Made by a program: the position numbers and the translations under genes. A stretch of DNA of 64,000 bases from Bacilli bacterium (GTDB taxonomy: Bacteria > Bacillota_I > Bacilli_A > RF39 > UBA660). The stretch covers positions 805 through 64,804 of the forward strand of contig JAGAYJ010000006.1 of NCBI GenBank assembly GCA_017940575.1. The letters are read 5' to 3'. Positions 10,768 to 33,410 of this stretch are shown here, piece by piece. How positions within the stretch are numbered: the first letter of the stretch is position 1; each line of letters begins with the position of its first letter. A model generated the notes under the pieces. That model was not told the DNA's origin, did no database searches, and was given only the letters and a program-made list of their open reading frames with translations.

Positions 10768-11062
10768 TTTAAAAACTAAAACAAAATATAGTATTAAATA
10801 TACTAATGATTTTAAAAAGAATTATAAAAAAATAAAGAAACAAGGTAAGGATGTTTTAAAACTGATGTATGTTGTTGATAAATTAGCTAATGGTGAAAAG
10901 CTAGAAGAAAAATATAAAAATCATTTATTAGTTAATAGTAAGAATTATAAAAATTGTGGCGAATGTCATATTGAGCCTGATTGGTTGTTAGTATATCGTT
11001 ATATAAATGATGAATTATACTTAGTACTTGTTGCTACTGGTAGTCATTCAGAATTGTTTTAA
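10760..11062 (+). CDS. YafQ/RelE-family type II toxin (mRNA interferase)
   Basis: C-terminal ...HLL...CGECHIEPDWLLVYRYINDELYLVLVATGSHSELF matches the YafQ signature (H..L.G....ECHI.PDWLLIY....L.L.RTGSHS.LF). Confidence 0.8.
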   Translation: MTDLKTKTKYSIKYTNDFKKNYKKIKKQGKDVLKLMYVVDKLANGEKLEEKYKNHLLVNSKNYKNCGECHIEPDWLLVYRYINDELYLVLVATGSHSELF

Positions 11063-18502: not shown

Positions 18503-21500
18503 ATGAAGAAAAAAATTAGTTTATTATTATTTATAATACCTTTATTAATGTTTCCTTTAATGAATGTAGGGGCAGGCGATAATGAAGGAATAGAATTAAG
18601 AGAAATTACAAAAGTGGAACGTAAAAAGGGATATTTGATAAAATTTAGCGGTTCAAATAACCAATTAGTTCACAATGGTGATTTATTTGAAATTGAATTA
18701 AATAAAAAAGTTGCACTTTGCCTGGACCCAGGTCAACATATTTATGAGAATGCTAAATATAGGATGATTGGAAAAATAATGAAGGATGATTCAGACTCAA
18801 GCCACCCAAGCCCAAGTAATTTATTAATTAAGGCTTATTTATATGCATTAAGTAACTCCAGTACTAGCACTTTAGATGATAAACGTAGAAGAGCAGCTTC
18901 TCAGATTGTTGCATGGCAATGGGGTACTGCTGAATATACAAAAGGTTTATCTCAAGATGAAGAAGAAATATTAGCAATTAAGGATTCAATAAATATTAAT
19001 ATGAGCCTTGAAAATTTTAGGTATATTAGTGAAGATGCCTTTAAAAGTAAATATCCAAAAGGCACTTTAGAACGTTCATTATACGATGGACTTGAAAAAT
19101 TTGTTCCTAAAAATGTTAATAATAATTTAATAAAACATCTTTTTCAATTAGCAAATACTTTTATTGAAAAACAACATATTTTGGATACTGTTATTCCAGA
19201 TGATTTAGAATATTTAGGAATTTGGCAAGATACAAACAATCCTAGCAATCAAAGAGTATTAGCTTTATCTGATCAAGAAGCAGAAAAAGAATTAGAAAAA
19301 GAAAATTGTAAACAAGTTACATTTAATGCCTTATCTGATTGTTATGGCGATGATACACTTACATATGGAAGCATTTATCAAGAAACTGTAGGTGATTGTA
19401 AAAATTATTATGATAAAAAAACAAACAATAAATATTCTACATATGGTGTTAAAGATACTGATTTTGGAACATATTGTAGAATGTACTGTAATAAGTCATA
19501 TCGTCAAATCCTTCCAGGAAATATAGCAACTGCTGTAAACGTTGGAAGATACATTGTATGGCCTAATAATAATATTGAAAATAATAGATATAAAATAAAT
19601 GCTAATTTAGCAACATATCCAATGGAATTAACTTTAACTAAATCATGTCATATTGGACTTGCATATAGTGATGATACAAACAAATATCAAATTGAAACTG
19701 ATTATCAAACAGCTTATGGAAATTATATAAATTATATTAATTCAACAAGAGATTCTAATAATAAATTAGTTTATAATCAATATAAAAATGATAGTTATTC
19801 ATGTAAACCAACTTATGAAAACACATATAAAGCATTAAAAGAAGATGCTGATGATTATTGTAATAATAAAGTTGGCGAAGAGCCTACACCAGCAACTGTC
19901 AAAACTAATCCTCATGAATGTTGCTCTGGACCTGGTCGATGGGTTGGTGGCGTATTTGCATGTCCAACAACTACATGTTATGATGATGTGGAAACACAAG
20001 AACATAAAGATTGGAAAGAAAGAGTTAATACATGTAATGAAAAGAAAAAAGCTGCAGAAACAGCTTATGCTAACTTAGAAAAATGTGAAAAAATATCTGA
20101 GCATGAAAAAACAATTGCAGATATTATAGAAGATTTTAATAGTTGTGTTGGATATAATGCAAATATTAATTTAAATTTCTCTGTTCCAGGAATAAGCGTT
20201 TCATATAATGATGAAGAATATGGAACTACTATGGGACTTAAAGAAACATATGTTAGAAAAACGTGTACAAATTGTACTTCATCAATTGCTAAAATTCCAG
20301 CTGTTATTGCTTCAAACGCAACTGTAAATCTTACAAGGACAATTCAAACTAAAATTAATGCAATTAGTTCTAAAACAATTATTGGTGTTACAACTAAAAA
20401 ATATGATTTAGCTAATGGTTATTATTATTTTGTTAATAAGGATACAAATAAAGCTATAAGTACACTTAATACTAGAAACTATTCCATAATAGGATTTAGT
20501 AATATGCCTATTTCTTATAAAGCTAATTCAAAGAAAAAATATGATTTAAAAGTTATTATGTCATCTGTTACTGGAGATGCTAGTGTATTTAGTAAAGAAA
20601 TTGCTTCTAATAATTATGTATGTCATTATAAAGTAACAAAAACAACAAGTCCATCATGCGTATGTCCTGAGGGAACATTACATGCTGGAGAATCACTTGA
20701 TTGTTTATCTAAAAACAATAATGGAACTTGCCTAGATAATCAAGAACAATATTGTAATTCTAGTGCTGAAATTCCACATAATTGTACAAGTTCTGATTTA
20801 ACTTGTCCAAATGATCCATCAATGGATTTATCTGCTTGTGTTAATGCAGGTAAGACATATAATTGGTGTGTAAATAACTTCTGTGATGGAAAGGTACCTA
20901 ATCCTGATAATCCTGATGACCCTATTGTTCCAAGTAATCCAGTTAATCCTAATGGTGGTGGAAATGGTAATCGTGGATGGGTATGTCCTGCAGGAACAAA
21001 CGAAGGCATGGATTTATCTAGCTGTGTAATTCCTATGATGATAAAAGGTTATAGTGAAAAAGATGCATATGAATATTGTCGTGATGTAACTTGTCCTTAT
21101 GGTGGAATTAAAATAATCTATAGAGTTATAGATTTAGCAAATCCATTCCCAAGTAAGGATGCAGATAGTGTAGTTACACAAACAGGATTAAAAACAGGAA
21201 TGTTTAATGATCAATTAAAAGGTCGTTATCCAGGATCTAACTGGAATAGTACAAATGTTGTTAAGAAAAGAATTTTGAACAATAGAAATGTAGATGGTGA
21301 TAAAGTTTATAATAAACAACCTTTATACACATTTATTGTTGATTCAAGTAAAATAAAAGCAATTAGAAAATACAATGATGCTCAAAGAGATAGTTATGCT
21401 GATTTTAAACTAAATTGTTTAGATGGTAGAACTGCTTGTAAGAGTGACTTTGTACATAATTCAATATATGGTATAACAGGAGGTACATGTAAGAATGTTT

Positions 21501-21532
21501 CTAAAGGAAGCTTCTATACATGTGCTAATTAA
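18503..21532 (+). CDS. Large (1009 aa) secreted cysteine-rich protein; candidate adhesin with a thioester-domain-like (TQXA-like) N-terminal motif pair
   Basis: Signal peptide MKKKISLLLFIIPLLMFPLMNVGA. ALCLDPG (Cys73) and AASQIVAWQW (Gln134) resemble the Cys and TQxA(I/V)W motifs of thioester domains. A Pro-rich linker and repeated CP.GT...DLS.C modules lie in the C-terminal third. No LPXTG. Confidence 0.6.
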   Translation: MKKKISLLLFIIPLLMFPLMNVGAGDNEGIELREITKVERKKGYLIKFSGSNNQLVHNGDLFEIELNKKVALCLDPGQHIYENAKYRMIGKIMKDDSDSSHPSPSNLLIKAYLYALSNSSTSTLDDKRRRAASQIVAWQWGTAEYTKGLSQDEEEILAIKDSININMSLENFRYISEDAFKSKYPKGTLERSLYDGLEKFVPKNVNNNLIKHLFQLANTFIEKQHILDTVIPDDLEYLGIWQDTNNPSNQRVLALSDQEAEKELEKENCKQVTFNALSDCYGDDTLTYGSIYQETVGDCKNYYDKKTNNKYSTYGVKDTDFGTYCRMYCNKSYRQILPGNIATAVNVGRYIVWPNNNIENNRYKINANLATYPMELTLTKSCHIGLAYSDDTNKYQIETDYQTAYGNYINYINSTRDSNNKLVYNQYKNDSYSCKPTYENTYKALKEDADDYCNNKVGEEPTPATVKTNPHECCSGPGRWVGGVFACPTTTCYDDVETQEHKDWKERVNTCNEKKKAAETAYANLEKCEKISEHEKTIADIIEDFNSCVGYNANINLNFSVPGISVSYNDEEYGTTMGLKETYVRKTCTNCTSSIAKIPAVIASNATVNLTRTIQTKINAISSKTIIGVTTKKYDLANGYYYFVNKDTNKAISTLNTRNYSIIGFSNMPISYKANSKKKYDLKVIMSSVTGDASVFSKEIASNNYVCHYKVTKTTSPSCVCPEGTLHAGESLDCLSKNNNGTCLDNQEQYCNSSAEIPHNCTSSDLTCPNDPSMDLSACVNAGKTYNWCVNNFCDGKVPNPDNPDDPIVPSNPVNPNGGGNGNRGWVCPAGTNEGMDLSSCVIPMMIKGYSEKDAYEYCRDVTCPYGGIKIIYRVIDLANPFPSKDADSVVTQTGLKTGMFNDQLKGRYPGSNWNSTNVVKKRILNNRNVDGDKVYNKQPLYTFIVDSSKIKAIRKYNDAQRDSYADFKLNCLDGRTACKSDFVHNSIYGITGGTCKNVSKGSFYTCAN

Positions 21533-21541
21533 GGAGGTAAT

Positions 21542-21943
21542 ATGAAAGAGTCATTTTGGAGTGTATTTATCGTTATGATTGGCGTTATATCTCTAGCTTT
21601 CATTTACTTCTTTCAAACTGTTACATCTACAGATGAACAAAACTATACAATTTTAAAAGAAGTAACGGAAGCATCTATGTGGGATGCCGTTGATTGGACA
21701 GAATATAGAGCAACAGGAAATGTCAGAATTAATAGAGAGAAGTTTGTTGAAAACTTCATGAGAAGATTTGCTGAAAGCGTTTCTTTAGGAAATGTTTATA
21801 AAATAGATATTTATGATGTTAATGAATATCCACCTAAAGTAAGCTTAAAGGTTTCATCGAAATTAAATTCAAATGTGACCGATGAAATAGTAGAGTTCGA
21901 TATTGTAAATAAAATAGATGCAATATTAGAAACACCATATTAA
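21542..21943 (+). CDS. Small protein with an N-terminal hydrophobic helix (possible minor pilin or pseudopilin-like)
   Basis: MKESFWSVFIVMIGVISLAFIYFF, then a soluble ~105-aa domain. Sits immediately before the cpaB-like gene. Confidence 0.45.
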   Translation: MKESFWSVFIVMIGVISLAFIYFFQTVTSTDEQNYTILKEVTEASMWDAVDWTEYRATGNVRINREKFVENFMRRFAESVSLGNVYKIDIYDVNEYPPKVSLKVSSKLNSNVTDEIVEFDIVNKIDAILETPY

Positions 21944-21963
21944 AGAAAGGAAAGGGAAAAAAT

Positions 21964-22797
21964 ATGAATAATTTTATGATTTCAATTAAAAGATTTTTTC
22001 AAAACAAAAATACAGTAACAATCATTGGAGTTATATTAATTTTATTAGTATTATTCTTAGGATATCGTTACCAAATTAATAGAGCAGTTAACCCAGTATC
22101 AGGTATACCAGTTGCTACTCAAACAATTCAACCAAGAACATTAATAGAAAGTGATATGGTAGATACTATTCAAGTAGCACCTATAGTACTATCTGAAAAT
22201 GTAATTAGAACAAAATCTGCTGTTGTTGGAAAATATACTGCAGTTAATACAGTAGTTCCAGAAGGAAGTATGTTCTATAAAAATACAGTTGTAACAAAAG
22301 ATGAACTTCCAGATGCTGCATTTGTAGACATCGAAAAAGGTCAAATTCCATACAACTTCCCAGTTACTATGGCATCTACTTATGGTAACTCAATTTATCC
22401 AGGAAATTATATTGATATCTACATGAAATCATATAATGAAAGTGGAGAATTAATGGTTGGTAGATTAATTGAAAACGTTAAAGTATTAGCAGTAAAAGAT
22501 TCTTCAGGTAAAAATGTATTTGAAAACTCTGAAGAAACAAGAGTACCAGCTTATATAATCTTTGGATTAGATTATGAATTAAATATTCTACTTAGAAAAG
22601 CTAGCTACATGGATGAATTCTCAGTAGATTTATTCCCAGTACCACATGGTACACAAGTTAAAACTGGTGAAGGTGAAACAGTTGTAAGTAGCCAAACATT
22701 AAAAGACTTCATAAATGCTAATACAGTACCTAACGATGAAATAACTGCACAACAAGAAGCTGATGCAGCAAAAGAATCTGTTGAAACTAACGAATAG
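21964..22797 (+). CDS. cpaB: Flp pilus assembly protein CpaB/RcpC-like (SAF domain)
   Basis: N-terminal TM. SAF-like segment IPVATQTIQPRTLIESDMV...VVGKYTAVNTVVPEGSMF. Then PGNYIDIYM...ENVKVLAVKD...IIFGLDYELNILLRKA, as in CpaB C-terminal domains. Confidence 0.7.
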   Translation: MNNFMISIKRFFQNKNTVTIIGVILILLVLFLGYRYQINRAVNPVSGIPVATQTIQPRTLIESDMVDTIQVAPIVLSENVIRTKSAVVGKYTAVNTVVPEGSMFYKNTVVTKDELPDAAFVDIEKGQIPYNFPVTMASTYGNSIYPGNYIDIYMKSYNESGELMVGRLIENVKVLAVKDSSGKNVFENSEETRVPAYIIFGLDYELNILLRKASYMDEFSVDLFPVPHGTQVKTGEGETVVSSQTLKDFINANTVPNDEITAQQEADAAKESVETNE

Positions 22798-22811
22798 AAA
22801 GTTAAGGTATC

Positions 22812-23924
22812 ATGGAAGATAGTATGTTCTCCCAAATTGATTTTGGGGATTTACAACAATACTTAGATAACGATGATATAACAGATATTTCATATGATAA
22901 TGGTGGTCAAATCCACTTAAAAACATTATCAAGAGGTATATTCAGGATAGAAAATCCTAATATAAATAATGCATTTATGGAAAAATTAGCATTCCAATGC
23001 TCAAACGTAATGGGTAAGACATTTAATATGGCTCACCCATTCCTTGATGCAGAAGGGTCTGAACTTCGTTTAAACTTTGTTCATGAATCCATAGCTAAAA
23101 ATGGTATAGCTTGTGTTATACGTAAAACACCAGCTAAAATCAGACTTGAAAAAGAAAAATTGCTAAAAGAAAAATATATTGATTTAGATATACATGATTT
23201 TTTAATTCAATGTGTACTTGGACATTGTAATATCATTGCTTGTGGAGAAACTGGTTCTGGTAAAACAGAGTTTATAAAATACTTAGCTTCTAAAACAAGA
23301 CCAGATGAAAAAATAATTACAATAGAAGATACACTTGAACTACATTTGGATAAAATATTTCCACATAGAGATATTGTTACAATGAAGACAAATAATATAG
23401 CATCTTATTCAGATGTACTTGTCACTTGTATGAGACAGAATCCTAAATGGATACTTTTATCAGAGGTACGTAGTGCTGAGGCTGTAATGGCGGTAAGAAA
23501 CTCAATTTCATCAGGTCACTATATCTTATCAACAATACATGCTGATAGAGCATCTTCAATACCAAACCGTATGTATAGTTTGCTTGAGTCAAATCAAGAT
23601 ATGGATCAATATATGAAATCAGTATATCGTTATATACAATTAGGTGTATATATAAGAGGTTTTCAAGATAAAGCAACAAAACGATTTGTTCGTGAAATTG
23701 CTGAAGTAACAGAATTTTATGTTACTGAAGATAATGAACCAAGATATAATGAAATTTATAAAAAAACAACAACAGGTCATGTTGTTAGACACAAACCATC
23801 CAAATACTTAATTGATTACTTGGATAGACAAGGCGTAACGCTTGATGAAAACTTAATTCATGAAGGTGAAAGTGGTACACCTATAGATACTGAGAATTCA
23901 ATTGAGACTATTGGTGGTGAATAA
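22812..23924 (+). CDS. tadA: TadA/CpaF-type (T2SS-E/VirB11 superfamily) secretion ATPase
   Basis: Walker A ACGETGSGKTEF. Walker B/Asp box ILLSEVRSAEA. His box STIHADRASS. Size of 370 aa. Confidence 0.8.
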   Translation: MEDSMFSQIDFGDLQQYLDNDDITDISYDNGGQIHLKTLSRGIFRIENPNINNAFMEKLAFQCSNVMGKTFNMAHPFLDAEGSELRLNFVHESIAKNGIACVIRKTPAKIRLEKEKLLKEKYIDLDIHDFLIQCVLGHCNIIACGETGSGKTEFIKYLASKTRPDEKIITIEDTLELHLDKIFPHRDIVTMKTNNIASYSDVLVTCMRQNPKWILLSEVRSAEAVMAVRNSISSGHYILSTIHADRASSIPNRMYSLLESNQDMDQYMKSVYRYIQLGVYIRGFQDKATKRFVREIAEVTEFYVTEDNEPRYNEIYKKTTTGHVVRHKPSKYLIDYLDRQGVTLDENLIHEGESGTPIDTENSIETIGGE

Positions 23925-23934
23925 GGAGGATATT

Positions 23935-24843
23935 ATGGTTACTTTAATAGTTTTCTTAATTATAGCATTTATAATTGTCTTTGTAATGGCCTATAGATAC
24001 AATTCAGGAGATAGTTTTTATAAATATATATCAAAACAATCAAATCTTTTATATGAAAAATTTGCTCCTTATTCATTTAAAGAAATAAGAGAAAAAGTTA
24101 AAGATTTAGGTCAAGAGTATACTAAAAAACAATATATGATACAAATTGGTGTATTCTCAATTTCAGCAGCAGTTATATCATATTTGTATTTTTATAATTT
24201 ACTAATTTCTTTAATTTACATTATTGCTTCAATTGTTGTAATTCCAGTATTAACATTTTATAGATGTAAACGTATTTATTCAGAATTTATTTTTGAACAA
24301 ATTCAAGTTTATACAACAAATGTTATTATGGAATTCGCAACTACACAATCATTTGTAAAAGCACTAGAAGGTGTTTATGATTCAGGTGTCTTAGAAGATC
24401 CTGTTAAAAGTGATGTTAAGACAATGATAGATATGTCATATGAAAATGGTACTATAGATGCGGCTGTAGCGTTTATGAATGAGAAATATGATTATTATAT
24501 TGTTAAAAATATGCATCAATTATTTATTCAAATTACAAATGAAGGTTCTAAAAATTCAAGTGATGCTTTAGAAAATATGTCACTTGATATCGATATGCTT
24601 GTTGAAAATGTATATCGTGATAGAATGGATAGAGCACAATTCCATAAAAAATTCTTACAATTTGGTATTGTTTTATATTTAATGGTTATGTTAGTACAAT
24701 TCTTACTTGGAACAGAATCTTACATAAAATTACTTGATACTAATTTACTTGTTCAAGTATTATTACATGCAATTATTATTGTTAATTCATACTTCTTACT
24801 TAATGGTGAGAAATACTATAATGAGAATGTGGGGGCTGAATAA
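23935..24843 (+). CDS. tadB: TadB-like platform protein (T2SS-F domain family)
   Basis: The start is moved to ATG 23935 (AAGGAGG 6 nt upstream). Topology is N-terminal TM, a TM pair, a ~150-aa cytoplasmic helical domain and a C-terminal TM pair, as in TadB/TadC. Confidence 0.6.
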   Translation: MVTLIVFLIIAFIIVFVMAYRYNSGDSFYKYISKQSNLLYEKFAPYSFKEIREKVKDLGQEYTKKQYMIQIGVFSISAAVISYLYFYNLLISLIYIIASIVVIPVLTFYRCKRIYSEFIFEQIQVYTTNVIMEFATTQSFVKALEGVYDSGVLEDPVKSDVKTMIDMSYENGTIDAAVAFMNEKYDYYIVKNMHQLFIQITNEGSKNSSDALENMSLDIDMLVENVYRDRMDRAQFHKKFLQFGIVLYLMVMLVQFLLGTESYIKLLDTNLLVQVLLHAIIIVNSYFLLNGEKYYNENVGAE

Positions 24844-25628
24844 TGGAATTTTTAATTATTGGTGTAATTCTTTTATTCATACTTCAATATAGTAAAAGAA
24901 TTAATTTAAGAAAATTTGTTGGTGATACTGAACCATACTTTAGATCATTAATGGAAGAAGATTATGAATTCTTACTTAAACTTAAATATGGTAACGATGT
25001 AGATGTTAATGAAATATTTGGTACAAGAGTTAGAAATGGTTTAGTAACAATCGTAATACTTATATTTGTATTTGTAATGTCTAAACCAAGCTTTATAAAT
25101 GTTTTACTTGCTTTTATACTAGGATTTGTAGTATTTAAAATGCCTTATTCTAGTTTACAAACTTATTATAAAAACAACTTACATCATATAGATCAAATGC
25201 TTCCATATTATTTAAAGAGTTTGGAAATCTTAATCCAACATTATACTGTTCCAGTAGCGCTTAGAAGAAGTATTAACACAGCTCCTGAAATCTTTGTTCC
25301 AGGACTTAAAAGATTAGTTGATAGAATTGAACAAGGTGATTCTTCAGTTGATCCTTATATGGATTTCGCAAAAGAATATCCTGTACGTGATTCTATGCGT
25401 ATGATGCGTTTACTTTACCGTTTAGGTTTAGGAGACCAAGAAAACAAACAAGAACAATTAGTTATGTTTTCACGTACTGTATCAACTCTTCAAAATAAAG
25501 CTCGTGAACAAAAATACAAAGAACGTTTGGAGAAAATGGAAAACAAAACAATGCAAATGTTATTCGTAACAGGTGGAGGTATATTATTATTACTTCTATT
25601 CTCAATGTTACAAATGATGAATTTATAA
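24843..25628 (+). CDS. tadC: TadC-like platform protein (T2SS-F domain family)
   Basis: Same topology. LPYYLKSLEILIQHYTVPVALRRSI... resembles the T2SSF motif. TAATG overlap with the upstream gene. Confidence 0.6.
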   Translation: MEFLIIGVILLFILQYSKRINLRKFVGDTEPYFRSLMEEDYEFLLKLKYGNDVDVNEIFGTRVRNGLVTIVILIFVFVMSKPSFINVLLAFILGFVVFKMPYSSLQTYYKNNLHHIDQMLPYYLKSLEILIQHYTVPVALRRSINTAPEIFVPGLKRLVDRIEQGDSSVDPYMDFAKEYPVRDSMRMMRLLYRLGLGDQENKQEQLVMFSRTVSTLQNKAREQKYKERLEKMENKTMQMLFVTGGGILLLLLFSMLQMMNL

Positions 25629-25657
25629 TTAGAACATAAAATTGTTCTAATTTTTTT
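25629..25657 (+). terminator. Rho-independent terminator after the tadC-like gene
   Basis: ttagaaca-taaaat-tgttctaa followed by T7. Confidence 0.65.
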
Positions 25658-25762
25658 GTCTTCTTTTAACTAGTTTTGTCGAATTACTTGATTATATATG
25701 TTTTTATTTTAAAATAAACAATTAATTATTCTTTTAATATTAGTTAGAAAGAAGCTGATTAG

Positions 25763-26671
25763 ATGAATGAAATTATTGAAAAAGAATTAAATATAGAAGA
25801 TATGATATATGAGATAAGAGGTAAACAAGTAATGCTTGATAGTGATTTAGCTTATTTATTTGATTATGAAACAAAAGATTTAAATAGAAATGTTAAAAAT
25901 AATATGAAAAGATTTCCAATAAATTATTGTTTTCAATTGACTGACGAAGAATATTCTAACTTGAGGTGCAAAAATTTCACCTCAAGTTTAAAAAATAACT
26001 ATGGTGGAAGAAGATATAATCCATATGTTTTTACAGAACATGGAATTACGATGCTGGCAGGAATATTAAAAAGTGAAAAAGCTATTAAGATGAGTTTAAA
26101 AATAGTTGATACGTTTATAAGAATGAGACATTTCATTAAAGATAATATGCTTACTCAACAAAATATAAATAATATAGTTTTAGAAGATCATACTCATATT
26201 TTAAAAATGGATGATGATTTAAAATTACTACAAGAAGCTTTTGATAAATTAGAAGATAAAAAAAGAGTTAATGAAATATATTTAGATGGAGAGTTTTATA
26301 AAGCTTTTTCAAGAGTTATAGATATATTTAATGAAGCTAAGAAAGAGTTAATAATAATAGATAGTTACGCTGATAAAAAGCTATTAGATATTATTAAAGA
26401 TTTAAATATAAAAGTAACTATAATTACAAAAGAAAAAGGAAAACTAAATAAAACTATAATAGATGAATATAATAAAGAATTTAATAATTTAAAAGTTATT
26501 TATAATGATTCATTTCATGATAGATATTTTATAATAGATAGAAATATAATATATCACTCAGGTACATCAATAAACTATATGGGAAGTAAAACATTTAATA
26601 TTAATTTAATACAAGATAAATATGTATTTGATTTATTAATAAAAAAAATTACTCAAATAATTTGTCAATAA
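25763..26671 (+). CDS. ORF6N/KilA-N-type DNA-binding domain protein with a C-terminal HDR...GTS module
   Basis: N-terminus IYEIRGKQVMLDSDLAYLFDYETKDLNRNVKNNMKRFPINYCFQLT is the ORF6N pattern. C-terminus LIIIDSYADKKLLD...FHDRYFIIDRNIIYHSGTSINYMGSKTF. Confidence 0.7.
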   Translation: MNEIIEKELNIEDMIYEIRGKQVMLDSDLAYLFDYETKDLNRNVKNNMKRFPINYCFQLTDEEYSNLRCKNFTSSLKNNYGGRRYNPYVFTEHGITMLAGILKSEKAIKMSLKIVDTFIRMRHFIKDNMLTQQNINNIVLEDHTHILKMDDDLKLLQEAFDKLEDKKRVNEIYLDGEFYKAFSRVIDIFNEAKKELIIIDSYADKKLLDIIKDLNIKVTIITKEKGKLNKTIIDEYNKEFNNLKVIYNDSFHDRYFIIDRNIIYHSGTSINYMGSKTFNINLIQDKYVFDLLIKKITQIICQ

Positions 26672-26693
26672 CTGTAAATAACACAAATAATAT

Positions 26694-26722
26694 TTGATAA
26701 ATAATTAATATAGTGTTATACT
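26694..26722 (+). promoter_or_regulatory. Promoter for the pilin/tadZ-like sub-operon
   Basis: TTGATA (26694-26699), 17-nt spacer ending in TGT, TATACT (26717-26722). Confidence 0.5.
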
Positions 26723-26757
26723 ATAAATGTAGAAAAATATAATAAGGTGGTGAGAAA

Positions 26758-26940
26758 ATGAAAGAAGCATCTGGAGAAGCAAATATGACTGTAGTTACAA
26801 TCATCTTAATCGGTATTATAGTTGCTGTAGCTACACCATTAATTAATAGTATGATGAATAATACTAAAACTAAAGCTGAATGTATGAATAATGGTGGTTA
26901 TATTGAAAATGGTAAATGCGTTGGAGCTACTTCAAATTAA
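26758..26940 (+). CDS. Small (60 aa) pilin-like protein, candidate major subunit
   Basis: MKEASG leader, a 22-residue hydrophobic helix (MTVVTIILIGIIVAVATPLI), and a C-terminal Cys pair (AECMNNGGYIENGKC). Strong RBS AAGGTGGTGA. Confidence 0.55.
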   Translation: MKEASGEANMTVVTIILIGIIVAVATPLINSMMNNTKTKAECMNNGGYIENGKCVGATSN

Positions 26941-26951
26941 TTGGTGATTAG

Positions 26952-27377
26952 ATGAAAGAAGCAATTGGACATATTCCATTATATAATTTTTTAATAATAT
27001 TTATCATTATAACTTTTGGATTTTTATCTGCAACTTTAACTTACTATAAAGCATTTAAAGTTAATAGTAGAATTGCATATACTTTAGAAGAATTTGAAGG
27101 CTATAATAGTGAATCTATTAAAGAAATTAATAGAGTCTTAGGTACAATGGGATATAGAACAGGTAGTGCTAAGAATTGTCCTAAAAAGTCAATTGGTAGT
27201 GCATTATCTACAAAAGGAATAAATCATCCTGTTTGTATTTATGAGTCTAAGCAAAAAAATGGATATTTTAATTATGGTATTGTAACCTATATATATCTTG
27301 ATATTCCTGTATTGGGTGGAACATTTAAAGTTCCTGTATATACAGAAAGTGAAAGAATATTTAAATTTTCAAGTTAG
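26952..27377 (+). CDS. Pilin-like or pseudopilin-like protein (paralog 1)
   Basis: MKEAIG leader + hydrophobic helix. Two Cys. Clearly paralogous to 27390-27833 (YKAFKVNSRI / TKAFKVKNRI; GIVTYIYLDIPVLG / GVVAYIYMEIPIIG). Confidence 0.55.
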   Translation: MKEAIGHIPLYNFLIIFIIITFGFLSATLTYYKAFKVNSRIAYTLEEFEGYNSESIKEINRVLGTMGYRTGSAKNCPKKSIGSALSTKGINHPVCIYESKQKNGYFNYGIVTYIYLDIPVLGGTFKVPVYTESERIFKFSS

Positions 27378-27389
27378 AGTGGTGATAAT

Positions 27390-27833
27390 GTGAGAGAGGC
27401 AATTGGTAATAGTTTTGTACTTAATTTTATCATCACTTTTATCATCTTGTTTATTTTAATTTTTGTTGGTACAACTACTTATACGAAAGCTTTTAAAGTA
27501 AAAAATAGAATAGTTGATATCATTGAAAATTATGATGGAAATATATCGAATGGTAATAGATTAAATAGTTCTGTACAAGATGAAATAAATGAAAAATTAG
27601 GTCAAATAGGTTATAGAATAGAACCAAATTCTGAGTGTAAAACTGATGGTCGTTTTTCTAAAGGAACTGTTTTATCAAAAACAAGTAATTATAGGTATTG
27701 TATTTATAGATTTACGACTAATAAAGGTAACTATTATGGAGTTGTTGCGTATATTTATATGGAAATACCAATAATTGGTGCAAAATTAGAATTCCCAGTT
27801 TATGGTGAAACTAAAATTTTTTATGATTTATAA
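27390..27833 (+). CDS. Pilin-like or pseudopilin-like protein (paralog 2)
   Basis: GTG start. MREAIG leader + hydrophobic helix. Two Cys. Paralog of the preceding gene. Confidence 0.55.
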   Translation: MREAIGNSFVLNFIITFIILFILIFVGTTTYTKAFKVKNRIVDIIENYDGNISNGNRLNSSVQDEINEKLGQIGYRIEPNSECKTDGRFSKGTVLSKTSNYRYCIYRFTTNKGNYYGVVAYIYMEIPIIGAKLEFPVYGETKIFYDL

Positions 27834-27849
27834 TGAGGGGATGGGTTAG

Positions 27850-28857
27850 ATGAATGTAATTATTTCTAATAAACATCAACAAACTCTTGAAATGTTAGAG
27901 ATTGATGTTATTAAATCTTTAAATGGTGAATTTGATGTAGATGATATTATTAGTCAATTTAAAAATTTCTATTTTCAAAGAATGATTATTGATATTACTG
28001 CTTTAAAAAACTATAAAGATATTAAAACACTTCAAAAATTATCTATTTCACTTGATATGGATAAAGTGATTTTATTACTTGATGATTCTGTTGATGATGG
28101 AACAGGTGATTTCTTATCTAAATTAGTTTCAATGGGAATATATAATTTTACACGTAATGTAGATGGTATAATGTACTTATATAACAATCCAAATAGTTAT
28201 AGAGATGTTGCACATATTCAACAATTAGATGTTAATACTACAGATCAAGTAAGTGTCAATACAACAGTTGTTGAAAATATTTATACAGGAACACGTATTA
28301 TAGGTATAAAAAATGTAACAAAGCAAACTGGAGCAACTACACTTTCATACATGATGAAAAAACAATTAGAGAAACATTATAGTGTTGTAGCACTTGAAGT
28401 TAATAAAGATGAATTTAGATATTTTAGAGATAAAAATATGTATTCAGTTAAAGATGTTGAGCTTGGAAATGCTATAGCAAAATATAATGATCGTGATGTT
28501 ATTATCGTTGATGTTAATGATTCTCTTCAAGCAGAAAGTGTTTGTCATGAAATCATATATTTAGTAGAACCATCAATTATAAAACTTAATAAGTTAATGA
28601 CAGTTAATCCAACTGTATTTAAGAAAATTAAAGGTAAGAAAATTATATTGAATCAAAGTATTTTAAGCCCAAAAGATGTACTTGATTTTGAGTATGAATC
28701 TGGTGTTAAAATATATTTCAATATGCCACCTTTAGATGAGAGAGAAAGAAGTATACATATACTTAATAAATTCTTAGTTATGCTTGGATTTTCAAAACAA
28801 CAAGATAGTGAAGAAGATAATAAAAAATTCAATATTTTAGGCTTATTTAAAAAGTAA
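27850..28857 (+). CDS. TadZ/CpaE-like ParA/MinD-fold protein with an N-terminal receiver-like domain and a degenerate P-loop
   Basis: The N-terminal ~120 aa are receiver-like (VIISNK...IIDITAL...VILLLDD). The ParA-like core is RIIGIKNVTKQTGATTLSYMMK...VVALEVN...VIIVDVND, but the KGGxGK(T/S) lysines and glycines are not conserved. Confidence 0.5.
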   Translation: MNVIISNKHQQTLEMLEIDVIKSLNGEFDVDDIISQFKNFYFQRMIIDITALKNYKDIKTLQKLSISLDMDKVILLLDDSVDDGTGDFLSKLVSMGIYNFTRNVDGIMYLYNNPNSYRDVAHIQQLDVNTTDQVSVNTTVVENIYTGTRIIGIKNVTKQTGATTLSYMMKKQLEKHYSVVALEVNKDEFRYFRDKNMYSVKDVELGNAIAKYNDRDVIIVDVNDSLQAESVCHEIIYLVEPSIIKLNKLMTVNPTVFKKIKGKKIILNQSILSPKDVLDFEYESGVKIYFNMPPLDERERSIHILNKFLVMLGFSKQQDSEEDNKKFNILGLFKK

Positions 28858-28861
28858 AATG

Positions 28862-28890
28862 TTGACAAAAAAAGGAAAATAATATAATAT
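28862..28890 (+). promoter_or_regulatory. Promoter ahead of the T4SS module
   Basis: TTGACA (28862-28867). Either TATAAT at 28883-28888 (15-nt spacer) or TAATAT at 28885-28890 (17-nt spacer). Confidence 0.45.
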
Positions 28891-28933
28891 TGTAAATGAA
28901 GAGTGTTATTCACTCAAATGGGAGGTTTAGATT

Positions 28934-29299
28934 ATGTTAAATATTTTAGAGATTACTTGTGGTACTAGTGTTAGAATACCAGACATACTTCCAAATTTAG
29001 TACATTACTTAATTTTATTTATTCAAATCTTTATTCCAATTGTTTTAATCGTTCTTGGAATGCTTGATATGGGTAAAGCTGTAATGAGCAATGATGAAAA
29101 AGTAATGAAAGAAAACCAAAACAAATTAATTAAAAGAGTTATTTATGCTGTATTAGTTTTCTTAGTAGTTGCTATTGTTAAGACAGTTGTAAGTATGGTT
29201 GCTAATGTAAGTAAAGATGATAGTGCTGCAGAAAGCGGAAATATTTCTACTTGTATTGAATGTTTCGTTAACGGAACTGAATCAAGCAAATGTAAATAA
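28934..29299 (+). CDS. VirB2/TrbC-like small two-TM pilin-like conjugal transfer protein
   Basis: Hydrophobic hairpin LVHYLILFIQIFIPIVLIVLGMLDMGKAVMSNDEKVMKENQNKLIKRVIYAVLVFLVVAIV fits the Firmicutes/Mollicutes pilin-like family pattern (..P.LLIV.G..DF.KAV...DE...K...K.IKR.I.A..VF). Confidence 0.55.
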   Translation: MLNILEITCGTSVRIPDILPNLVHYLILFIQIFIPIVLIVLGMLDMGKAVMSNDEKVMKENQNKLIKRVIYAVLVFLVVAIVKTVVSMVANVSKDDSAAESGNISTCIECFVNGTESSKCK

Positions 29300-29385: not shown

Positions 29386-30489
29386 ATGAAAAAATGGTTA
29401 AAATATATATTAATTACATCTATATTTATGTTTATTGGCATGTCATCAAGTATGGCGTTAACACCTAAATTCACATGCACTTATAATGTTAAAGTTGATG
29501 ATTTAAAAATTGGTGCTAGTGGTTCAAAAAAATATGTTGTATCAGTATATAATGAAACAACTGCAACTTCAAATGTTAGCGTTGGTGAGACAATTGATGA
29601 TAGTGGAAATCTTTATGTTGCATTTAATGGAGGAGAAAAATCTTTTCATAAACAATTTGCAAAAGCCGCAACTGATGGTAATTTATGCCCTGTAATTAAA
29701 ATATCATCATACAATAGTTCAGACATTCAATTCAATTTAATTGGTCATGACACAACAGGCCAAGCTTCAAAAGAATATGAAGGTACTATTAAAATTATGT
29801 CAAAAGAAGTTAAAGTTGAAACAGAGAATGAAGTATGCTCTTTTACAACACAAGAAATTAAATCACAATCAGCGTCTATTACAGTTCATTTTTATAATCA
29901 GGGTTCAAAAAAACTTTGGGCAATTTATAAAAATATGGATGGTCAGGACCCACGTTTGATAGATAAAACAGACTATAATAAATCAATAGTAGACGGTGAA
30001 TACTCATATAGAGTATCTGAAAGTGATTATGATAATTTTTGGACAAACGGTAAATGTGATAAAATAGGTCATTATGTTCAATCATCAAATGGAGGTCTAT
30101 TTACAATTCAATCAGAAAAACCAAGCGATGCTGAAAATGGTGAGGCAGGTTCGACTGTAACACCAACTGAAAAACCTGATTCACCTCAAGTGGTTAATTT
30201 TGGTGGATGCGCAGATATGCCAAAAACAACTGAATTATTAAGACAAGTGTATAGATTAGTTAGATATTTAATTCCTGTTTTAATAATAGTTTTAAGTATT
30301 GTTGATTTTATAAAAGTTGTTGCAAATGGTGATGATAAAGAATATAAAAATGCATGGAATAAATTTATTAAAAGAATTATTATTGGAATTGTAATTATTA
30401 TTGTTCCAACAATTATTAGCATGCTTATTGGATTGAGTGGCTTAGATACTGCTTATGGAATAAAAGATATTATTTGTGTCATTAAATAA
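29386..30489 (+). CDS. Secreted ~270-aa domain fused to a C-terminal VirB2-like two-TM module
   Basis: Signal peptide MKKWLKYILITSIFMFIGMSSSMA. The C-terminus GGCADMPKTTELLRQVYRLVRYLIPVLIIVLSIVDFIKVVANGDDKEYKNAWNKFIKRIIIGIVIIIVP aligns with the whole of 28934-29299. Confidence 0.55.
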   Translation: MKKWLKYILITSIFMFIGMSSSMALTPKFTCTYNVKVDDLKIGASGSKKYVVSVYNETTATSNVSVGETIDDSGNLYVAFNGGEKSFHKQFAKAATDGNLCPVIKISSYNSSDIQFNLIGHDTTGQASKEYEGTIKIMSKEVKVETENEVCSFTTQEIKSQSASITVHFYNQGSKKLWAIYKNMDGQDPRLIDKTDYNKSIVDGEYSYRVSESDYDNFWTNGKCDKIGHYVQSSNGGLFTIQSEKPSDAENGEAGSTVTPTEKPDSPQVVNFGGCADMPKTTELLRQVYRLVRYLIPVLIIVLSIVDFIKVVANGDDKEYKNAWNKFIKRIIIGIVIIIVPTIISMLIGLSGLDTAYGIKDIICVIK

Positions 30490-30507: not shown

Positions 30508-32508
30508 ATGGAATCAAATTTCATATTAAACTCATTTAGAACAATTATTTCTGCAATAGATAGAGCAATATATGGTTTAATAAGTTTCTTATATGAAATA
30601 ATGGAAATATTGGCAAGACATGAATTATTTTCTGCCGATGTAATTGACAGTTTTGCAACAAGAGTTTATACATTACTTGGACTTATAATGGTTTTTAAAG
30701 TTACTTTTTCTCTTATAAACTATTTAGTTAATCCAGATATGATAAATGATAAAACACAAGGGGCCGGAAATATTGCTAAAAATATAGTTATAACATTAGT
30801 TTTAATTATAGTTACACCATATTTGTTTGACTTTGGCTATAAACTTCAAAATGCAATATTAGATGATAATGTACTTCCAAGATTAATACTAGAAACAGAA
30901 GATACAAGTAGTGCTTCACTTGAAATTATAATGGATCCTAATGTTTGTAAAGATAAAAGAACATATGCTGATAATTATGGTGACTATATGGCTATTATGA
31001 CTTTACGTCCATTTTATCAATTTGACAAAGATGTTTTGAGTAGAAATAGAAATAGTGATGTTGAAAATGCTTATTGCTATGCAACAAATACAGGTACTTT
31101 ATTACAATCATCTATTTATAAAGCAGATGAAGGTGTAATTAGTCAAAATAATGTAGGCAGTTATTTGATTGATTATTCTATGATTTTATCAACAGTAGCA
31201 GGAGTTGTTGTTGCATTATTATTGTTGACATTGTGTATGGATGTAGCTGTTCGTACAATTAAATTAGCTTTTTTAGAAATTGTTGCACCTATTCCTATTA
31301 TCTCATATATTGATCCAAAATCTGGAAAAGATGGTATATTTAAAAAATGGTATAAAGAAGTTATAAGAACATGGGCTGGTTTATTTGTTAAACTTACAGC
31401 AATATATTTTGCAATTTATGTAATAAGTTTAATTGGAACTGCTGATTTAAGTTCTGAAGAACATGGTGTTTGGATTATGTTATTCTTGATACTTGGTGCT
31501 TTAATGTTTGCTAAACAATTTACAAAACTAATTGAAGATATATTTGGCATTAAACTTGATGGAATGGGATTACATCCAATTAAAAAAATTCAAGAACAAG
31601 CTGCAGGTGGAAAGGCAATAACGAATTTTGGATCAGGAGTTGTTGGAGCTGCTGGAGGTGCCATTGCAGGTGCTAGAGCAGGTTATAATGCTGGTGCTTT
31701 AGGTCGTGGTATTGCTGTAGGAGCTATGACTGGTTTTTCAAATGGTAAGGGAGATAAGAAACCATTTACTACTGGCATGAATAAAACATATAAAAATTTA
31801 ACAGGTAATGATATGGTAAATATGACACCTACTTCATTGTTAATGGGTCTTGGTAGCAAAGCTAATAATAGGGTTGGCGAGGTAAAAGATGCTCTTAAAA
31901 TAGCTAATGAAAGACTTAGAAATGAAGAAACTAGGTTAAATAATGCTGCATACCTAAGTTCACGTGCAAGTGAAGTTTTGAGTAAATATAAGATTGATCC
32001 AAACAATATGAAATCGTCTAATAGTTATATAAAAGATGCTGAAGTTCTTGAAGAAAAAAATAAAAATATAGAAAATAGATTAGAATTATATAACAAAGCT
32101 AAAAATTATGTAAATTCTTATACTCCATCAAAGGATGCAAATGGTAATGATGTTTATGATCAAAGATATATTGATTATAAAAAATTGGTTGATAAATATG
32201 ACTCAACAGGTATGGTAAGTCAATTTGAAAATGCACTTGAAATTAATAGACAAAACATTGATAAGAACCGTTCAATTGCAGAAGCTGTTGATAACTTCAG
32301 AACTAGTATGGATGCTCAACAAAAAGCTCGTAAAGCAATAGCTGATATTAATAAAGAAATTAGCACATTATCTGATGAGAAAAAACAACGTCAAACATTC
32401 TGGCAAGTTGATACATCACCTAAGAAATCTGTTAAAGAAGCATTGGCGAACAATCAACCTCCAGTTACAAACGGAATTGATTATTCTCCAAAAGATGATG
32501 ACCAGTAA
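30508..32508 (+). CDS. VirB6/TrbL-like polytopic T4SS channel protein with Gly-rich and coiled-coil C-terminal extension
   Basis: Multiple TM segments over the first ~350 aa. Gly/Ala-rich tract (AAGGKAITNFGSGVVGAAGGAIAGARAGYNAGALGRG). Long charged C-terminus. Position between the VirB2-like and VirB3/VirB4 genes. Confidence 0.6.
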   Translation: MESNFILNSFRTIISAIDRAIYGLISFLYEIMEILARHELFSADVIDSFATRVYTLLGLIMVFKVTFSLINYLVNPDMINDKTQGAGNIAKNIVITLVLIIVTPYLFDFGYKLQNAILDDNVLPRLILETEDTSSASLEIIMDPNVCKDKRTYADNYGDYMAIMTLRPFYQFDKDVLSRNRNSDVENAYCYATNTGTLLQSSIYKADEGVISQNNVGSYLIDYSMILSTVAGVVVALLLLTLCMDVAVRTIKLAFLEIVAPIPIISYIDPKSGKDGIFKKWYKEVIRTWAGLFVKLTAIYFAIYVISLIGTADLSSEEHGVWIMLFLILGALMFAKQFTKLIEDIFGIKLDGMGLHPIKKIQEQAAGGKAITNFGSGVVGAAGGAIAGARAGYNAGALGRGIAVGAMTGFSNGKGDKKPFTTGMNKTYKNLTGNDMVNMTPTSLLMGLGSKANNRVGEVKDALKIANERLRNEETRLNNAAYLSSRASEVLSKYKIDPNNMKSSNSYIKDAEVLEEKNKNIENRLELYNKAKNYVNSYTPSKDANGNDVYDQRYIDYKKLVDKYDSTGMVSQFENALEINRQNIDKNRSIAEAVDNFRTSMDAQQKARKAIADINKEISTLSDEKKQRQTFWQVDTSPKKSVKEALANNQPPVTNGIDYSPKDDDQ

Positions 32509-32557
32509 TAATATAAATACTTTGAATTTTTAATCGAATAAAAAAGAGGGTGAAAGC

Positions 32558-32884
32558 ATGAATGATAATATATATTTGATACCTGCTAATAGTAAAAAAT
32601 CTATGATGATATTTGGAATGTTTTATCCTTTTGATTTAATCCTTTTCGGAACTGGTTTAGCAATAACACTAATACTATTAATGGTTTTACCACTTAGTAG
32701 TTTAATTGTTAGCTTGTTAGCCATTTCCCCTGGATTGATTACAGGACTTTTGGTTTTTCCACTTCCAAATTATCACAATACATTAACAGTGTTAATTGAT
32801 TTATGGGAATTCTTTACTACTAGACAGAGATATGTATGGAAAGGTTGGTGTGTGATGGATGAGCTCCAAAAGAATAAAGAGTAA
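32558..32884 (+). CDS. PrgI-family (VirB3-like) small membrane protein
   Basis: 108 aa with two TM segments and a C-terminal ...FFTTRQRYVWKG. Located immediately upstream of VirB4, as for PrgI/Orf17-type proteins. Confidence 0.55.
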   Translation: MNDNIYLIPANSKKSMMIFGMFYPFDLILFGTGLAITLILLMVLPLSSLIVSLLAISPGLITGLLVFPLPNYHNTLTVLIDLWEFFTTRQRYVWKGWCVMDELQKNKE

Positions 32885-33410
32885 ATATACTAATGAAGAA
32901 TTTGTTCCTGTTAAAAGTATTACAAATGGAATGATAATCTTAGATAACAATGATAAAGTAAGTGGTATTAAAATAATGCCAAGAAATATATTTATAGCTG
33001 ATCAAGAAACACAAAATGCTATAATTGCAAATCTTCGTAATGTTTATAATATGATAGATTATGAATTTTGGATTATAGCTGCTGATAGACCAGTTGATAT
33101 AAATGTATTCTTATCTCAATTACAACTTTTATATAATTCAGTACAAGATCAAGCTAGAAAAAAACTAATACTAGAAGATATAAATAAAGCTAATATGTTT
33201 ATGGATAATAATATTGTTGATACAGAATATTTCTTACTTTTTAAAGAAAGAAATAATGAAGTTATAATGAAGAGAATTAGAAATTTAATTAATTCATTTG
33301 CTAGTGCTGGTTTAAATACTCATCAAGTAACTAATGATGACTTAAGAATCATTTTAGATAATTTCTTAAATGGTGGTCAAACTACTACATTTGGGACGGT
33401 GATCGGATAA
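32859..33410 (+). CDS. Stand-alone N-terminal region of a VirB4-family ATPase (separate gene here)
   Basis: EEFVPVKSITNGMIILDNNDKVSGIKIMPRNIFIADQETQNAIIANLRNVYNMIDYEFWIIAADRPVD resembles the first ~180 aa of long Firmicutes VirB4 proteins (pattern ..IP...i.dGii...dg.y.k...f.diN....). TAATG junction with the ATPase gene. Confidence 0.55.
   Translation: MSSKRIKSKYTNEEFVPVKSITNGMIILDNNDKVSGIKIMPRNIFIADQETQNAIIANLRNVYNMIDYEFWIIAADRPVDINVFLSQLQLLYNSVQDQARKKLILEDINKANMFMDNNIVDTEYFLLFKERNNEVIMKRIRNLINSFASAGLNTHQVTNDDLRIILDNFLNGGQTTTFGTVIG

Follow-up and report, generated by a model that had tools for sequence, protein, structure and literature searches.

A Tad-like module with putative pilin-like subunits joined to a Gram-positive type IV secretion system in uncultured gut Bacilli

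We analysed a 64,000-nucleotide stretch of contig JAGAYJ010000006.1 from an uncultured Bacilli bacterium (the window; 26.4% G+C), in which three consecutive small open reading frames (ORFs) at 26758, 26952 and 27390 encode proteins of 60, 141 and 147 residues that share an N-terminal motif. GenBank labels all three as hypothetical proteins of a "Bacilli bacterium" metagenome-assembled genome (MAG; locus tags J6G98_00990 to 01000). The three ORFs are part of a block of 25 kb in which a Tad-like module is coupled with a Gram-positive type IV secretion system (T4SS). This module has the hallmarks of a type IV filament system bar the peptidase, namely a secretion ATPase, a paired platform and small proteins that are hydrophobic at the N-terminus. 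In the reading that we prefer, the three proteins, together with a DUF5411 protein encoded at 21542, are probably pilin-like subunits of a Tad-like type IV filament module embedded in the T4SS. The original prediction, which was made from the letters of the window, had proposed the three ORFs as a possible new pilin family with a divergent class III signal; the T4SS-linked 25-kb setting and the kinship with the operon of the conjugative plasmid pLS20 had been overlooked.

The three proteins start with MKEASG, MKEAIG and MREAIG, as first read, and all three ORFs are preceded by a GGTG-type Shine-Dalgarno sequence. Relatives were collected by scanning one genome per species, which gave matches in 192 species, and locus statistics refer to the best 80 loci (about 1,490 ORFs, ~1.4 Mb). 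These come almost entirely from animal-gut MAGs of uncultured "Bacilli", "Tenericutes" or "Mollicutes" with 25-34% G+C. Alignment of the homologues, which had been suggested as a check, showed that the leader is indeed kept: M-[KR]-E-[AS]-x-[GAS] recurs in homologues of the three ORFs across at least 80 related loci. Among the 66 genes of the window, only the three ORFs and 21542 start with M[KR]E[AS]. In the 80 loci, the same start is found in 212 members of four families (60-aa, 141-aa, 147-aa and DUF5411) and in none of the ~1,200 other ORFs, so that neither chance nor a bias in translation starts explains the motif.

Conservation is strongest in the 60-aa family (n = 180 distinct sequences), where the first 12 residues are nearly invariant; M1, K2, E3, E7, A8, N9 and T11 are fully so, and G6 is present in 178 of 180. 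Position 6 of the 141-aa family is Gly in 76 members and Ser in 4. In the 147-aa family it is Gly in 46, Ala in 23, Ser in 4 and Asn in 4 (n = 77), and the N-terminus M-[KR]-E-[AS]-[IVF]-[GAS]-N persists in homologues down to 45% identity.

Beyond the motif, the features first described for the three proteins were confirmed. One predicted transmembrane (TM) segment follows the motif directly in each of them, two Cys residues lie in each C-terminal part, and the 141-aa and 147-aa proteins are paralogues with 39% identity in a pairwise alignment. Pfam and NCBIfam hold no family for any of the three, and none of the 305 homologue clusters of the 147-aa protein is functionally named (the named ones are all "hypothetical protein"). 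The 60-aa, 141-aa and 147-aa proteins are thus three unannotated protein families. The number of Cys residues is even in 179 of the 180 sequences of the 60-aa family, which points to disulfides and to a C-terminus on the outside. G/A19 and P27 of this family, the latter present in 173 of 180, are spaced eight residues apart, and the same spacing separates G14 and P22 in type IVa pilins. Residues 9-11 of the 60-aa protein (26782-26790), N-[ML]-T within MKEAxGEAN[ML]TV, form an N-x-T sequon where the hydrophobic helix begins, and this sequon is invariant in all 180 sequences.

The DUF5411 gene at 21542 had been described as starting with MKES and lacking the Gly. This is correct for the copy in the window, which has Ser at position 7, and does not hold for the family, in which position 7 is mostly Gly (G 49, A 8, S 3). 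The family N-terminus, M-[KR]-E-S-[FYLM]-W-[GAS], is the same kind of motif as in the three ORFs, longer by one residue. An AlphaFold 2 (AF2) model of the protein consists of a helix at residues 2-48 and three strands (predicted local distance difference test score, pLDDT, 72.7). The family aligns with the gene-36 set of the pLS20 family over residues 1-83 (hhalign 94.9%, E 5e-8), and pLS20-family gene 36 itself matches Pfam DUF5411 at 6e-5. In Clostridia (Roseburia, Ruminococcus and Eubacterium), predicted secretion operons have been reported in which DUF5411 genes accompany genes for a CpaF-type ATPase, for a PilC/GspF-like protein and for a large protein of invasion/adhesin-like type (PMC9523054). 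That prediction was made from context only, and the N-terminal motif, pilin candidates and a T4SS link are not discussed there. We conclude that the DUF5411 protein is probably a fourth pilin-like subunit and a candidate minor one.

The motor components were identified through their relatives. The ATPase at 22812 scores 86.6 bits against Pfam T2SSE (cut-off 24.9), and its best solved relative is CpaF, the Tad motor (1.6e-16). The closest proteins among plasmid records are of the "CpaF/VirB11 family" of Gram-positive conjugative plasmids (31-33% identity, 142-149 bits), carried by the pLS20 family of Bacillus and by plasmids of Paraclostridium, Enterococcus (pZB18), Priestia, Lysinibacillus, Peribacillus and Exiguobacterium, whereas canonical monoderm Tad ATPases reach only 63-66 bits. 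On a Priestia plasmid, phmmer matched 21964 to an annotated SAF-domain protein (9e-22), 23902 to a protein annotated by NCBI as "type II secretion system F family protein" (7e-14) and 24843 to the neighbouring protein (1e-13).

The platform proteins 23902 and 24843 have no direct Pfam match. A search of a representative library with 23902 returned 245 matches, many of them fragments, and ten among the longest distant ones had no T2SSF match in Pfam. The link between the platform and T2SSF is drawn only through annotated plasmid relatives and hhalign. The 23902 family aligned with annotated T2SSF proteins (92%) and with the pLS20 gene-38 set (99.2%), the 24843 family with the gene-39 set (98.3%) and with gene-38 relatives (93.6%), and the gene-38 and gene-39 sets in turn with annotated T2SSF proteins (96.8% and 91.7%). 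Comparison of 23902 with 24843 by hhalign was negative with lineage-only alignments, and their paralogy is seen only with enlarged sets. PDB sequence searches with the 147-aa, 27850 and 23902 family profiles gave nothing meaningful. Together with the motif conservation, the gene order and the predicted helix-plus-sheet shape, the homologies of the ATPase, the platform proteins and the DUF5411 protein are what the data show.

The architecture of the block matches genes 34-41 of the pLS20-family operon, which comprise the adhesin Tie, gene 36, the VirB11-like gene 37 and genes 38-41. Judged by profile comparison, the window module is homologous to pLS20-family genes 36-40 and is their chromosomal cousin. 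The pLS20-like plasmid layout consists of an adhesin, a ~125-aa protein with an N-terminal TM segment, the ATPase, two polytopic proteins, a ~120-aa protein with an N-terminal TM segment (often DUF4320) and tiny hydrophobic proteins, followed by genes of the T4SS such as VirD4, VirB6 and VirB4. Where the fetched stretch extends far enough (pBatNRS213, Paraclostridium, pZB18 and Lysinibacillus), VirD4 and VirB6-like genes are seen further on; the Exiguobacterium locus is truncated by the start of its record and, unlike the other plasmid modules, has neither an adhesin nor T4SS genes in the fetched part. The one-operon set of VirB4, VirB6, VirD4, a cell-wall hydrolase and a VirB11-like ATPase module is present in the window. 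In contrast to the pLS20 family of conjugative plasmids, the window block is chromosomal, with its order conserved in at least 80 loci. Its CpaB/SAF gene is shared with Priestia and not with pLS20, and the N-termini of the small subunits read MKEAxG in the window versus MLDQN[AT]DR and MxExS[IV]M on the plasmids.

In the gene catalogue of the pLS20 family, genes 36 and 38-45 are listed as unknown, genes 36 and 40 only as N-terminal-TM proteins of unknown function, and the family is stated to have no pilus homologues (PMC8557374). Our literature search found nothing on DUF4320 or on a Tad-like pilus in Gram-positive conjugation, and no description of the N-terminal motif or naming of these proteins as pilins. 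Gene 45 of the pLS20 family (L081:12967-13203; 78 aa in pBatNRS213) is listed with two TM segments (PMC8557374). Its position is that of an NCBI-annotated "TrbC/VirB2 family protein" in the Enterococcus (L083:10467-10745) and Peribacillus (L095:8026-8298) modules, a likeness by position alone, and the published absence of VirB2 homologues in the pLS20 family may merit another look.

In gene order, the module resembles Tad. The position after the ATPase and platform pair is taken by one small and two ~140-aa genes, as by flp, tadE and tadF in monoderm Tad loci. The Tad/Flp loci of Bifidobacterium, of Ruminococcus albus (pRUMAL01) and of a Curtobacterium plasmid have the same order of ATPase, two T2SSF proteins, a small pilin and TadE/TadF-sized proteins, and a SAF/CpaB gene also lies upstream in the Curtobacterium locus. 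Unlike these loci, the window system lacks the G/xxxxEY motif and any Flp/TadE match, has no recognised TadZ and a distant ATPase, and is joined to a T4SS; the R. albus locus, unlike the window block, also contains an A24 peptidase. In its likely mode of action, the system is most similar to a monoderm Tad apparatus that has been added to a T4SS.

With classical type IV pilins and Com pseudopilins (PilA, ComGC) the three proteins share a leader of 5-7 residues that ends in a small residue, ~20 hydrophobic residues next to it, Gly/Pro helix breakers, a putative C-terminal disulfide and a predicted helix-plus-sheet shape. They differ in having no Phe/Met at +1, no Glu at +5, no N_methyl match and a non-basic leader. 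Archaeal type IV pilins and archaellins, processed by FlaK/PibD/EppA, allow Gly, Ala or Ser at -1 and do not require Glu5. The basic -2 residue typical of archaeal signals is missing in the window ORFs, and the host here is bacterial; one homologue gave a sub-threshold Pilin_N match (E 0.03), and no FlaK/PibD-like peptidase was found.

Structure prediction, proposed earlier as a way to look for a lollipop pilin fold, returned the shape of a pilin without a solved pilin as a match. The AF2 model of the 147-aa protein (pLDDT 82) has a helix at residues 2-47, a second helix at 60-73 and four strands, so that this protein and the DUF5411 protein both show a long N-terminal helix and a small sheet. 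Taken together, the small proteins are quite probably pilin-like subunits of this module. The notion of a possible new pilin family is partly supported: the conserved leader, the unannotated families, the Tad-like position and the helix-plus-sheet models speak for it, and nothing shows that the motif is a cleaved class III signal.

The preferred reading has to be set against a number of observations that weigh the other way. A Foldseek search of the PDB with the 147-aa and DUF5411 models gave no match with E < 0.1 and no solved pilin, and structure therefore supports shape only and not membership. None of the three ORFs matches the Pfam families N_methyl (at E <= 0.1), Flp_Fap or TadE. The canonical pilin at 53866 served as a control and matches N_methyl; the Flp/TadE part of the test is weak, in that bona fide monoderm Flp candidates of R. 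albus and Curtobacterium also miss Pfam. As had been stated from the start, Glu at +5 and an EY motif behind the Gly are both absent: +1 is E, S, H or N and +5 is T, L or Y in these ORFs. In terms of sequence, the three ORFs fail the tests of classical type IV pilins and of Flp/TadE, and we do not file them as members of either. The leader of six residues has a net charge of 0 to -1 and is not basic, and a charge of +1.4 to +3.8 falls on the 12 residues that follow the TM segment, a pattern for which the positive-inside rule favours the opposite topology.

The same holds for the comparison with the plasmids and for processing. The 141/147 family aligns with the DUF4320-like set and pLS20 gene 40 at 82% (hhalign) over 39 columns only, and no homology was detected between the 60-aa family and pLS20 gene 41. 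Gly is lacking at the leader end of the pLS20-type counterparts, which keep an acidic residue at position 3; the smallest proteins are also acidic at position 7 (MKEAAGE in the window kin, MLDQNAD or MLDQNTD on the plasmids), with MQISGE in Lysinibacillus. A filament has been reported for none of these systems (PMC8557374, PMC11730352). A tblastn search with the R. albus A24 peptidase found nothing in the window or the 80 loci, and no A24 peptidase is encoded in the 10 kb past the 3' end of the window. Position 6 is not Gly in 31 of the 77 members of the 147-aa family (40%), which weakens cleavage. With these Ala, Ser and Asn residues, an N-terminus that is not positive, a positive stretch after the TM segment and plasmid kin that conserve the acidic position 3 and not the Gly, the description of the motif as a cleaved class III signal was not borne out.

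The absence of a prepilin peptidase from the window, also claimed at the outset, stands as far as tested. All polytopic proteins of the window (at least three predicted TM segments) except 6509-8257 and 43630-45858 were scanned with Pfam, and none of them is a prepilin peptidase; 8250-10373 was judged through its counterpart in related contigs, which has precomputed ABC_membrane and ABC_tran matches. On the 5' side, three fetched contigs end ~0.5-2.2 kb past the window and add no peptidase. Polytopic ORFs of the loci that initially had no assignment were identified as YfhO, CDP-alcohol transferase, cation efflux, YitT and FtsX proteins. The 521-aa protein at 16225 was rejected as a hidden peptidase (no GxGD/GxHD by eye, an inspection that is not rigorous), and so was the C39-like domain of 37018 as a leader peptidase, which is extracytoplasmic and in a wall-hydrolase context.

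The window itself encodes a canonical prepilin at 53866, and an A24 peptidase is therefore very probably encoded elsewhere in the genome. This prepilin gene is isolated: its neighbours are rpmF (53638) and ftsK (54485), and its vicinity contains no com or pil genes. The missing peptidase is not an anomaly and has precedents as well: in Bifidobacterium, tadV is encoded away from the tad locus and some species have none (PMC13091076), and peptidases are shared between systems, with all MSH loci lacking one (PMC6668835). On Enterococcus pZB18 (L083:650-1096), a gene for a CPBP-family intramembrane glutamic endopeptidase lies a few kb upstream of the ATPase module; it has no counterpart in the window, and the enzyme is a possible alternative processing enzyme. 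Two readings fit the N-termini, either cleavage after the small residue, which leaves an acidic +1, or no cleavage, with the acidic tip residue replacing Glu5. That the leader is cleaved by an A24 peptidase is a real possibility, to which we give somewhat less than even chances.

The following model contains four inferences: that a filament forms, how the subunits are oriented in the membrane, that they are cleaved, and which peptidase cleaves them. The shared M-[KR]-E-[AS]-x-[GAS] motif would be a signature for subunit handling at the cytoplasmic face of the membrane. The 60-aa protein would be the major subunit, the 141-aa, 147-aa and DUF5411 proteins would be minor subunits, and all would insert with the N-terminus in and the C-terminus out. 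An A24 peptidase encoded elsewhere, possibly the one for the 53866 pilin, would remove the six-residue leader after the small residue, and the ATPase and platform would extrude a short filament or pseudopilus through the wall. Such a filament might present the upstream giant surface protein or help the T4SS to reach a target cell.

In a variant of this model the subunits are leaderless, with Met1, the basic residue 2 and the acidic residue 3 as the mature end; the acidic tip would do the charge neutralising of Glu5 and no peptidase would be needed. The A24 peptidase is missing not only from the window and the 80 loci but also from the annotated parts of six related plasmid modules, and the word "peptidase" occurs nowhere in the pLS20-family gene catalogue paper (PMC8557374). 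This variant would also account for a "leader" of just six non-basic residues, for the Asn tolerated at position 6 of the 147-aa family and for plasmid counterparts that share the acidic position 3 (and 7 in the smallest) rather than the Gly. We nevertheless think it unlikely: the near-constant G6 of the major subunit and the dominance of Gly, Ala and Ser in four families follow the classic -1 rule, a host genome with a canonical prepilin very probably has a peptidase, and host peptidases such as ComC could serve the plasmids. To our knowledge, moreover, no type IV filament assembles from uncleaved subunits. The broader proposal that pLS20-type T4SSs and their chromosomal relative build an extracellular filament with a Tad-like motor and leaderless, peptidase-independent pilin-like subunits is improbable in our estimate. 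A leaderless filament of this kind, if real, would supply the pilus that Gram-positive conjugation has seemed to lack and would be the first type IV filament to do without a prepilin peptidase.

The proteins could instead be ordinary bitopic membrane components of the ATPase/platform/T4SS complex that do not polymerise and serve, for example, in alignment or wall-spanning, with the motif as a docking peptide for the ATPase or platform. The missing pilin family or fold match, the positive cluster after the TM segment, the missing peptidase and the listing of pLS20-family genes 36 and 40 only as N-terminal-TM proteins of unknown function (PMC8557374) are all in keeping with this. Yet one N-terminal tag on four otherwise unrelated families is the pattern of a pilin set, and a scaffold role is hard to square with a 60-aa protein that has a near-invariant 12-mer and a tiny head rich in disulfides. 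The gene order equals flp-tadE-tadF, and the only function known for a platform with a hexameric ATPase of this family is to move pilin-like subunits (PMC6668835); such a non-polymerising role is, in our judgement, rather unlikely. A further possibility makes the 60-aa protein a secreted peptide rich in Cys (a toxin, a pheromone or a defensin-like molecule) with a Sec signal, and the other two proteins unrelated membrane proteins. Two homologues indeed lie at the threshold of Pfam AtDEF-like (25.5 bits, cut-off 25), and the variable C-terminus is rich in Cys and Gly. With a hydrophobic stretch of more than 20 residues, an acidic N-region, a near-invariant dodecamer unlike Sec signals and an identical kind of tag on three larger proteins, we regard a secreted peptide as highly improbable.

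The coordinates of the block are collected in the table. It runs from the five-TM protein at 16225 through a small surface protein at 17842, 18503, the DUF5411 gene, the CpaB/SAF gene, the ATPase, the platform pair and the three small ORFs to 27850, which is followed by one to six VirB2-like two-TM genes, the VirB6/TrbL gene, two small genes and the VirB4 gene. Most of the 80 loci keep this arrangement, and the window block extends further to the wall hydrolase (37018) and VirD4 (39155). The core order of ATPase, two platform proteins, the small protein and two ~145-aa proteins is kept in ~70 of the 80 loci.

Table. Genes of the Tad-like/T4SS block and the canonical prepilin in the window
Feature	Position	Strand	Remarks
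521-aa protein, five N-terminal TM segments, large extracellular domain	16225-17790	+	opens the block in 43 loci; no Pfam family
1009-aa secreted Cys-rich protein	18503-21532	+	signal-peptide-like N-terminus, no Pfam match; same position in 56 of 80 loci
DUF5411 protein, 133 aa	21542-21943	+	Pfam DUF5411 1e-52, full-length member; starts MKESFWS
CpaB/RcpC-like SAF-domain protein	21964-22797	+	TIGR03177 pilus_cpaB 2.7e-9, Pfam RcpC 8e-6, both below cut-off
CpaF/TadA/VirB11-type secretion ATPase	22812-23924	+	Pfam T2SSE 1.7e-24; true start may lie a few codons downstream
Platform protein 1, TadB/GspF-like	23902-24843	+	no Pfam match; real start likely near 23935 (MVTLIV...)
Platform protein 2, TadC-like paralogue	24843-25628	+	hhalign to gene-39/gene-38 relatives
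ORF6N/Rha-like gene	25763-26671	+	Pfam ORF6N 5e-33; at this position in 0 of 80 related loci
60-aa Flp-sized pilin-like protein	26758-26940	+	starts MKEASGEANMTVV / MKEASGEANMTVVTIILIG (MKEASG); candidate major subunit; no Pfam family
141-aa pilin-like protein	26952-27377	+	starts MKEAIGHIPLYNF (MKEAIG); candidate minor subunit
147-aa pilin-like protein	27390-27833	+	GTG start, MREAIGNSFVLNF (MREAIG); candidate minor subunit
Conserved 335-aa cytoplasmic protein	27850-28857	+	in 74 of 80 loci; takes the place at which one might look for a TadZ-like protein
VirB2-like two-TM modules, two genes	28934-29299, 29386-30489	+	Pfam T4SS_pilin 5e-7 in the C-terminus of 29386
T4SS core	30508-35194	+	VirB6/TrbL-like 30508, small two-TM protein 32558, 183-aa protein 32859, VirB4-like ATPase 33410
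Cell-wall hydrolase 37018 (glucosaminidase + C39-like), 228-aa protein 38456, VirD4 coupling protein 39155	37018-41203	+	Pfam
Canonical type IV/Com-like prepilin	53866-54225	+	MKKG/FTLVELVAVV; Pfam N_methyl 2e-6, above cut-off; outside the block

The T4SS core was assigned by Pfam matches to TrbL_4, AAA_10 and P-loop_TraG and by an order that is kept in related loci. The VirB2-like gene at 28934-29299 is single here and occurs in up to six tandem copies elsewhere (e.g. L034, L041 and L046), often interleaved with a ~365-aa secreted protein. The product of 27850 has no Pfam or PDB match, and hhalign against TadZ-like proteins was negative. Large surface adhesins (Tie, Ig-like or isopeptide) occupy the position of 18503 in the plasmid loci L081, L082, L083, L092, L094 and L095; judged solely by this operon position, the 18503 product may be an adhesin as well.

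The ORF6N/Rha-like gene at 25763 has been inserted in this genome only and does not belong to the system. A Bro-N gene is found at 4061-4879 (-) and another just past the window (L086:15451-16296); the ORF6N/Rha-like and Bro-N genes may be small mobile or phage-derived regulators. On one side, the block is flanked by DacB, SpmA/B and RluB, and on the other by a MurJ-like protein (Pfam Polysacc_synt/MatE), an AI-2E-family transporter, a HerA-like protein (DUF87) and FtsK. A RelB/YafQ-type toxin-antitoxin pair (10474-11062, +), assigned from Pfam annotation of the same genes in L089-L091, adjoins dacB. Among the Pfam-scanned genes of the window there is no relaxase, integrase or replication protein. 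A megablast search of 21000-29000 against plasmids and phages gave no match, nor did tblastn of the DUF5411 and 147-aa proteins against plasmids. With housekeeping flanks and no relaxase or integrase seen, the block looks like a fixed chromosomal machine, unlike a typical mobile element.

Some related loci carry additional genes or a rearranged block. A gene for a ~800-aa YfhO-type GT-C glycosyltransferase is inserted exactly between the platform and pilin-like genes in at least eight loci (L026, L027, L029, L031, L053, L054, L059 and L070), of which the L029 member (L029:6846-9260) was identified by Pfam (7e-154) and the other seven were grouped with it by BLAST. In L015 (4958-9178), a 135-aa four-TM protein, GtrA-like as read from its sequence, and a 654-aa ten-TM protein are encoded upstream of the pilin genes. 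These genes may point to glycosylation, either of the subunits or of the cell wall where the machine sits. In L039 and L070 the block is split or adjoins pgsA-recA-rny, and the pilin-like genes remain with whichever half is present, which shows that they can accompany the ATPase half as well as the T4SS half.

These results show that genes listed as unknown in pLS20 and their counterparts in the window form a Tad-like module of an ATPase, two T2SSF-like platform proteins and tagged small proteins, and a role as a probable subunit is assigned to DUF5411. If the small proteins are plain membrane anchors, this is still a useful, though ordinary, annotation of a conserved T4SS block. If they polymerise, they would provide a testable candidate for how monoderm T4SSs cross the thick wall or reach a partner. 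The main added value lies in the link to pLS20-type conjugation and in the wide chromosomal distribution in uncultured gut Bacilli. A large clade of these small-genome bacteria keeps the machine on the chromosome, which hints at a function in cell-cell or host contact rather than in plasmid spread.

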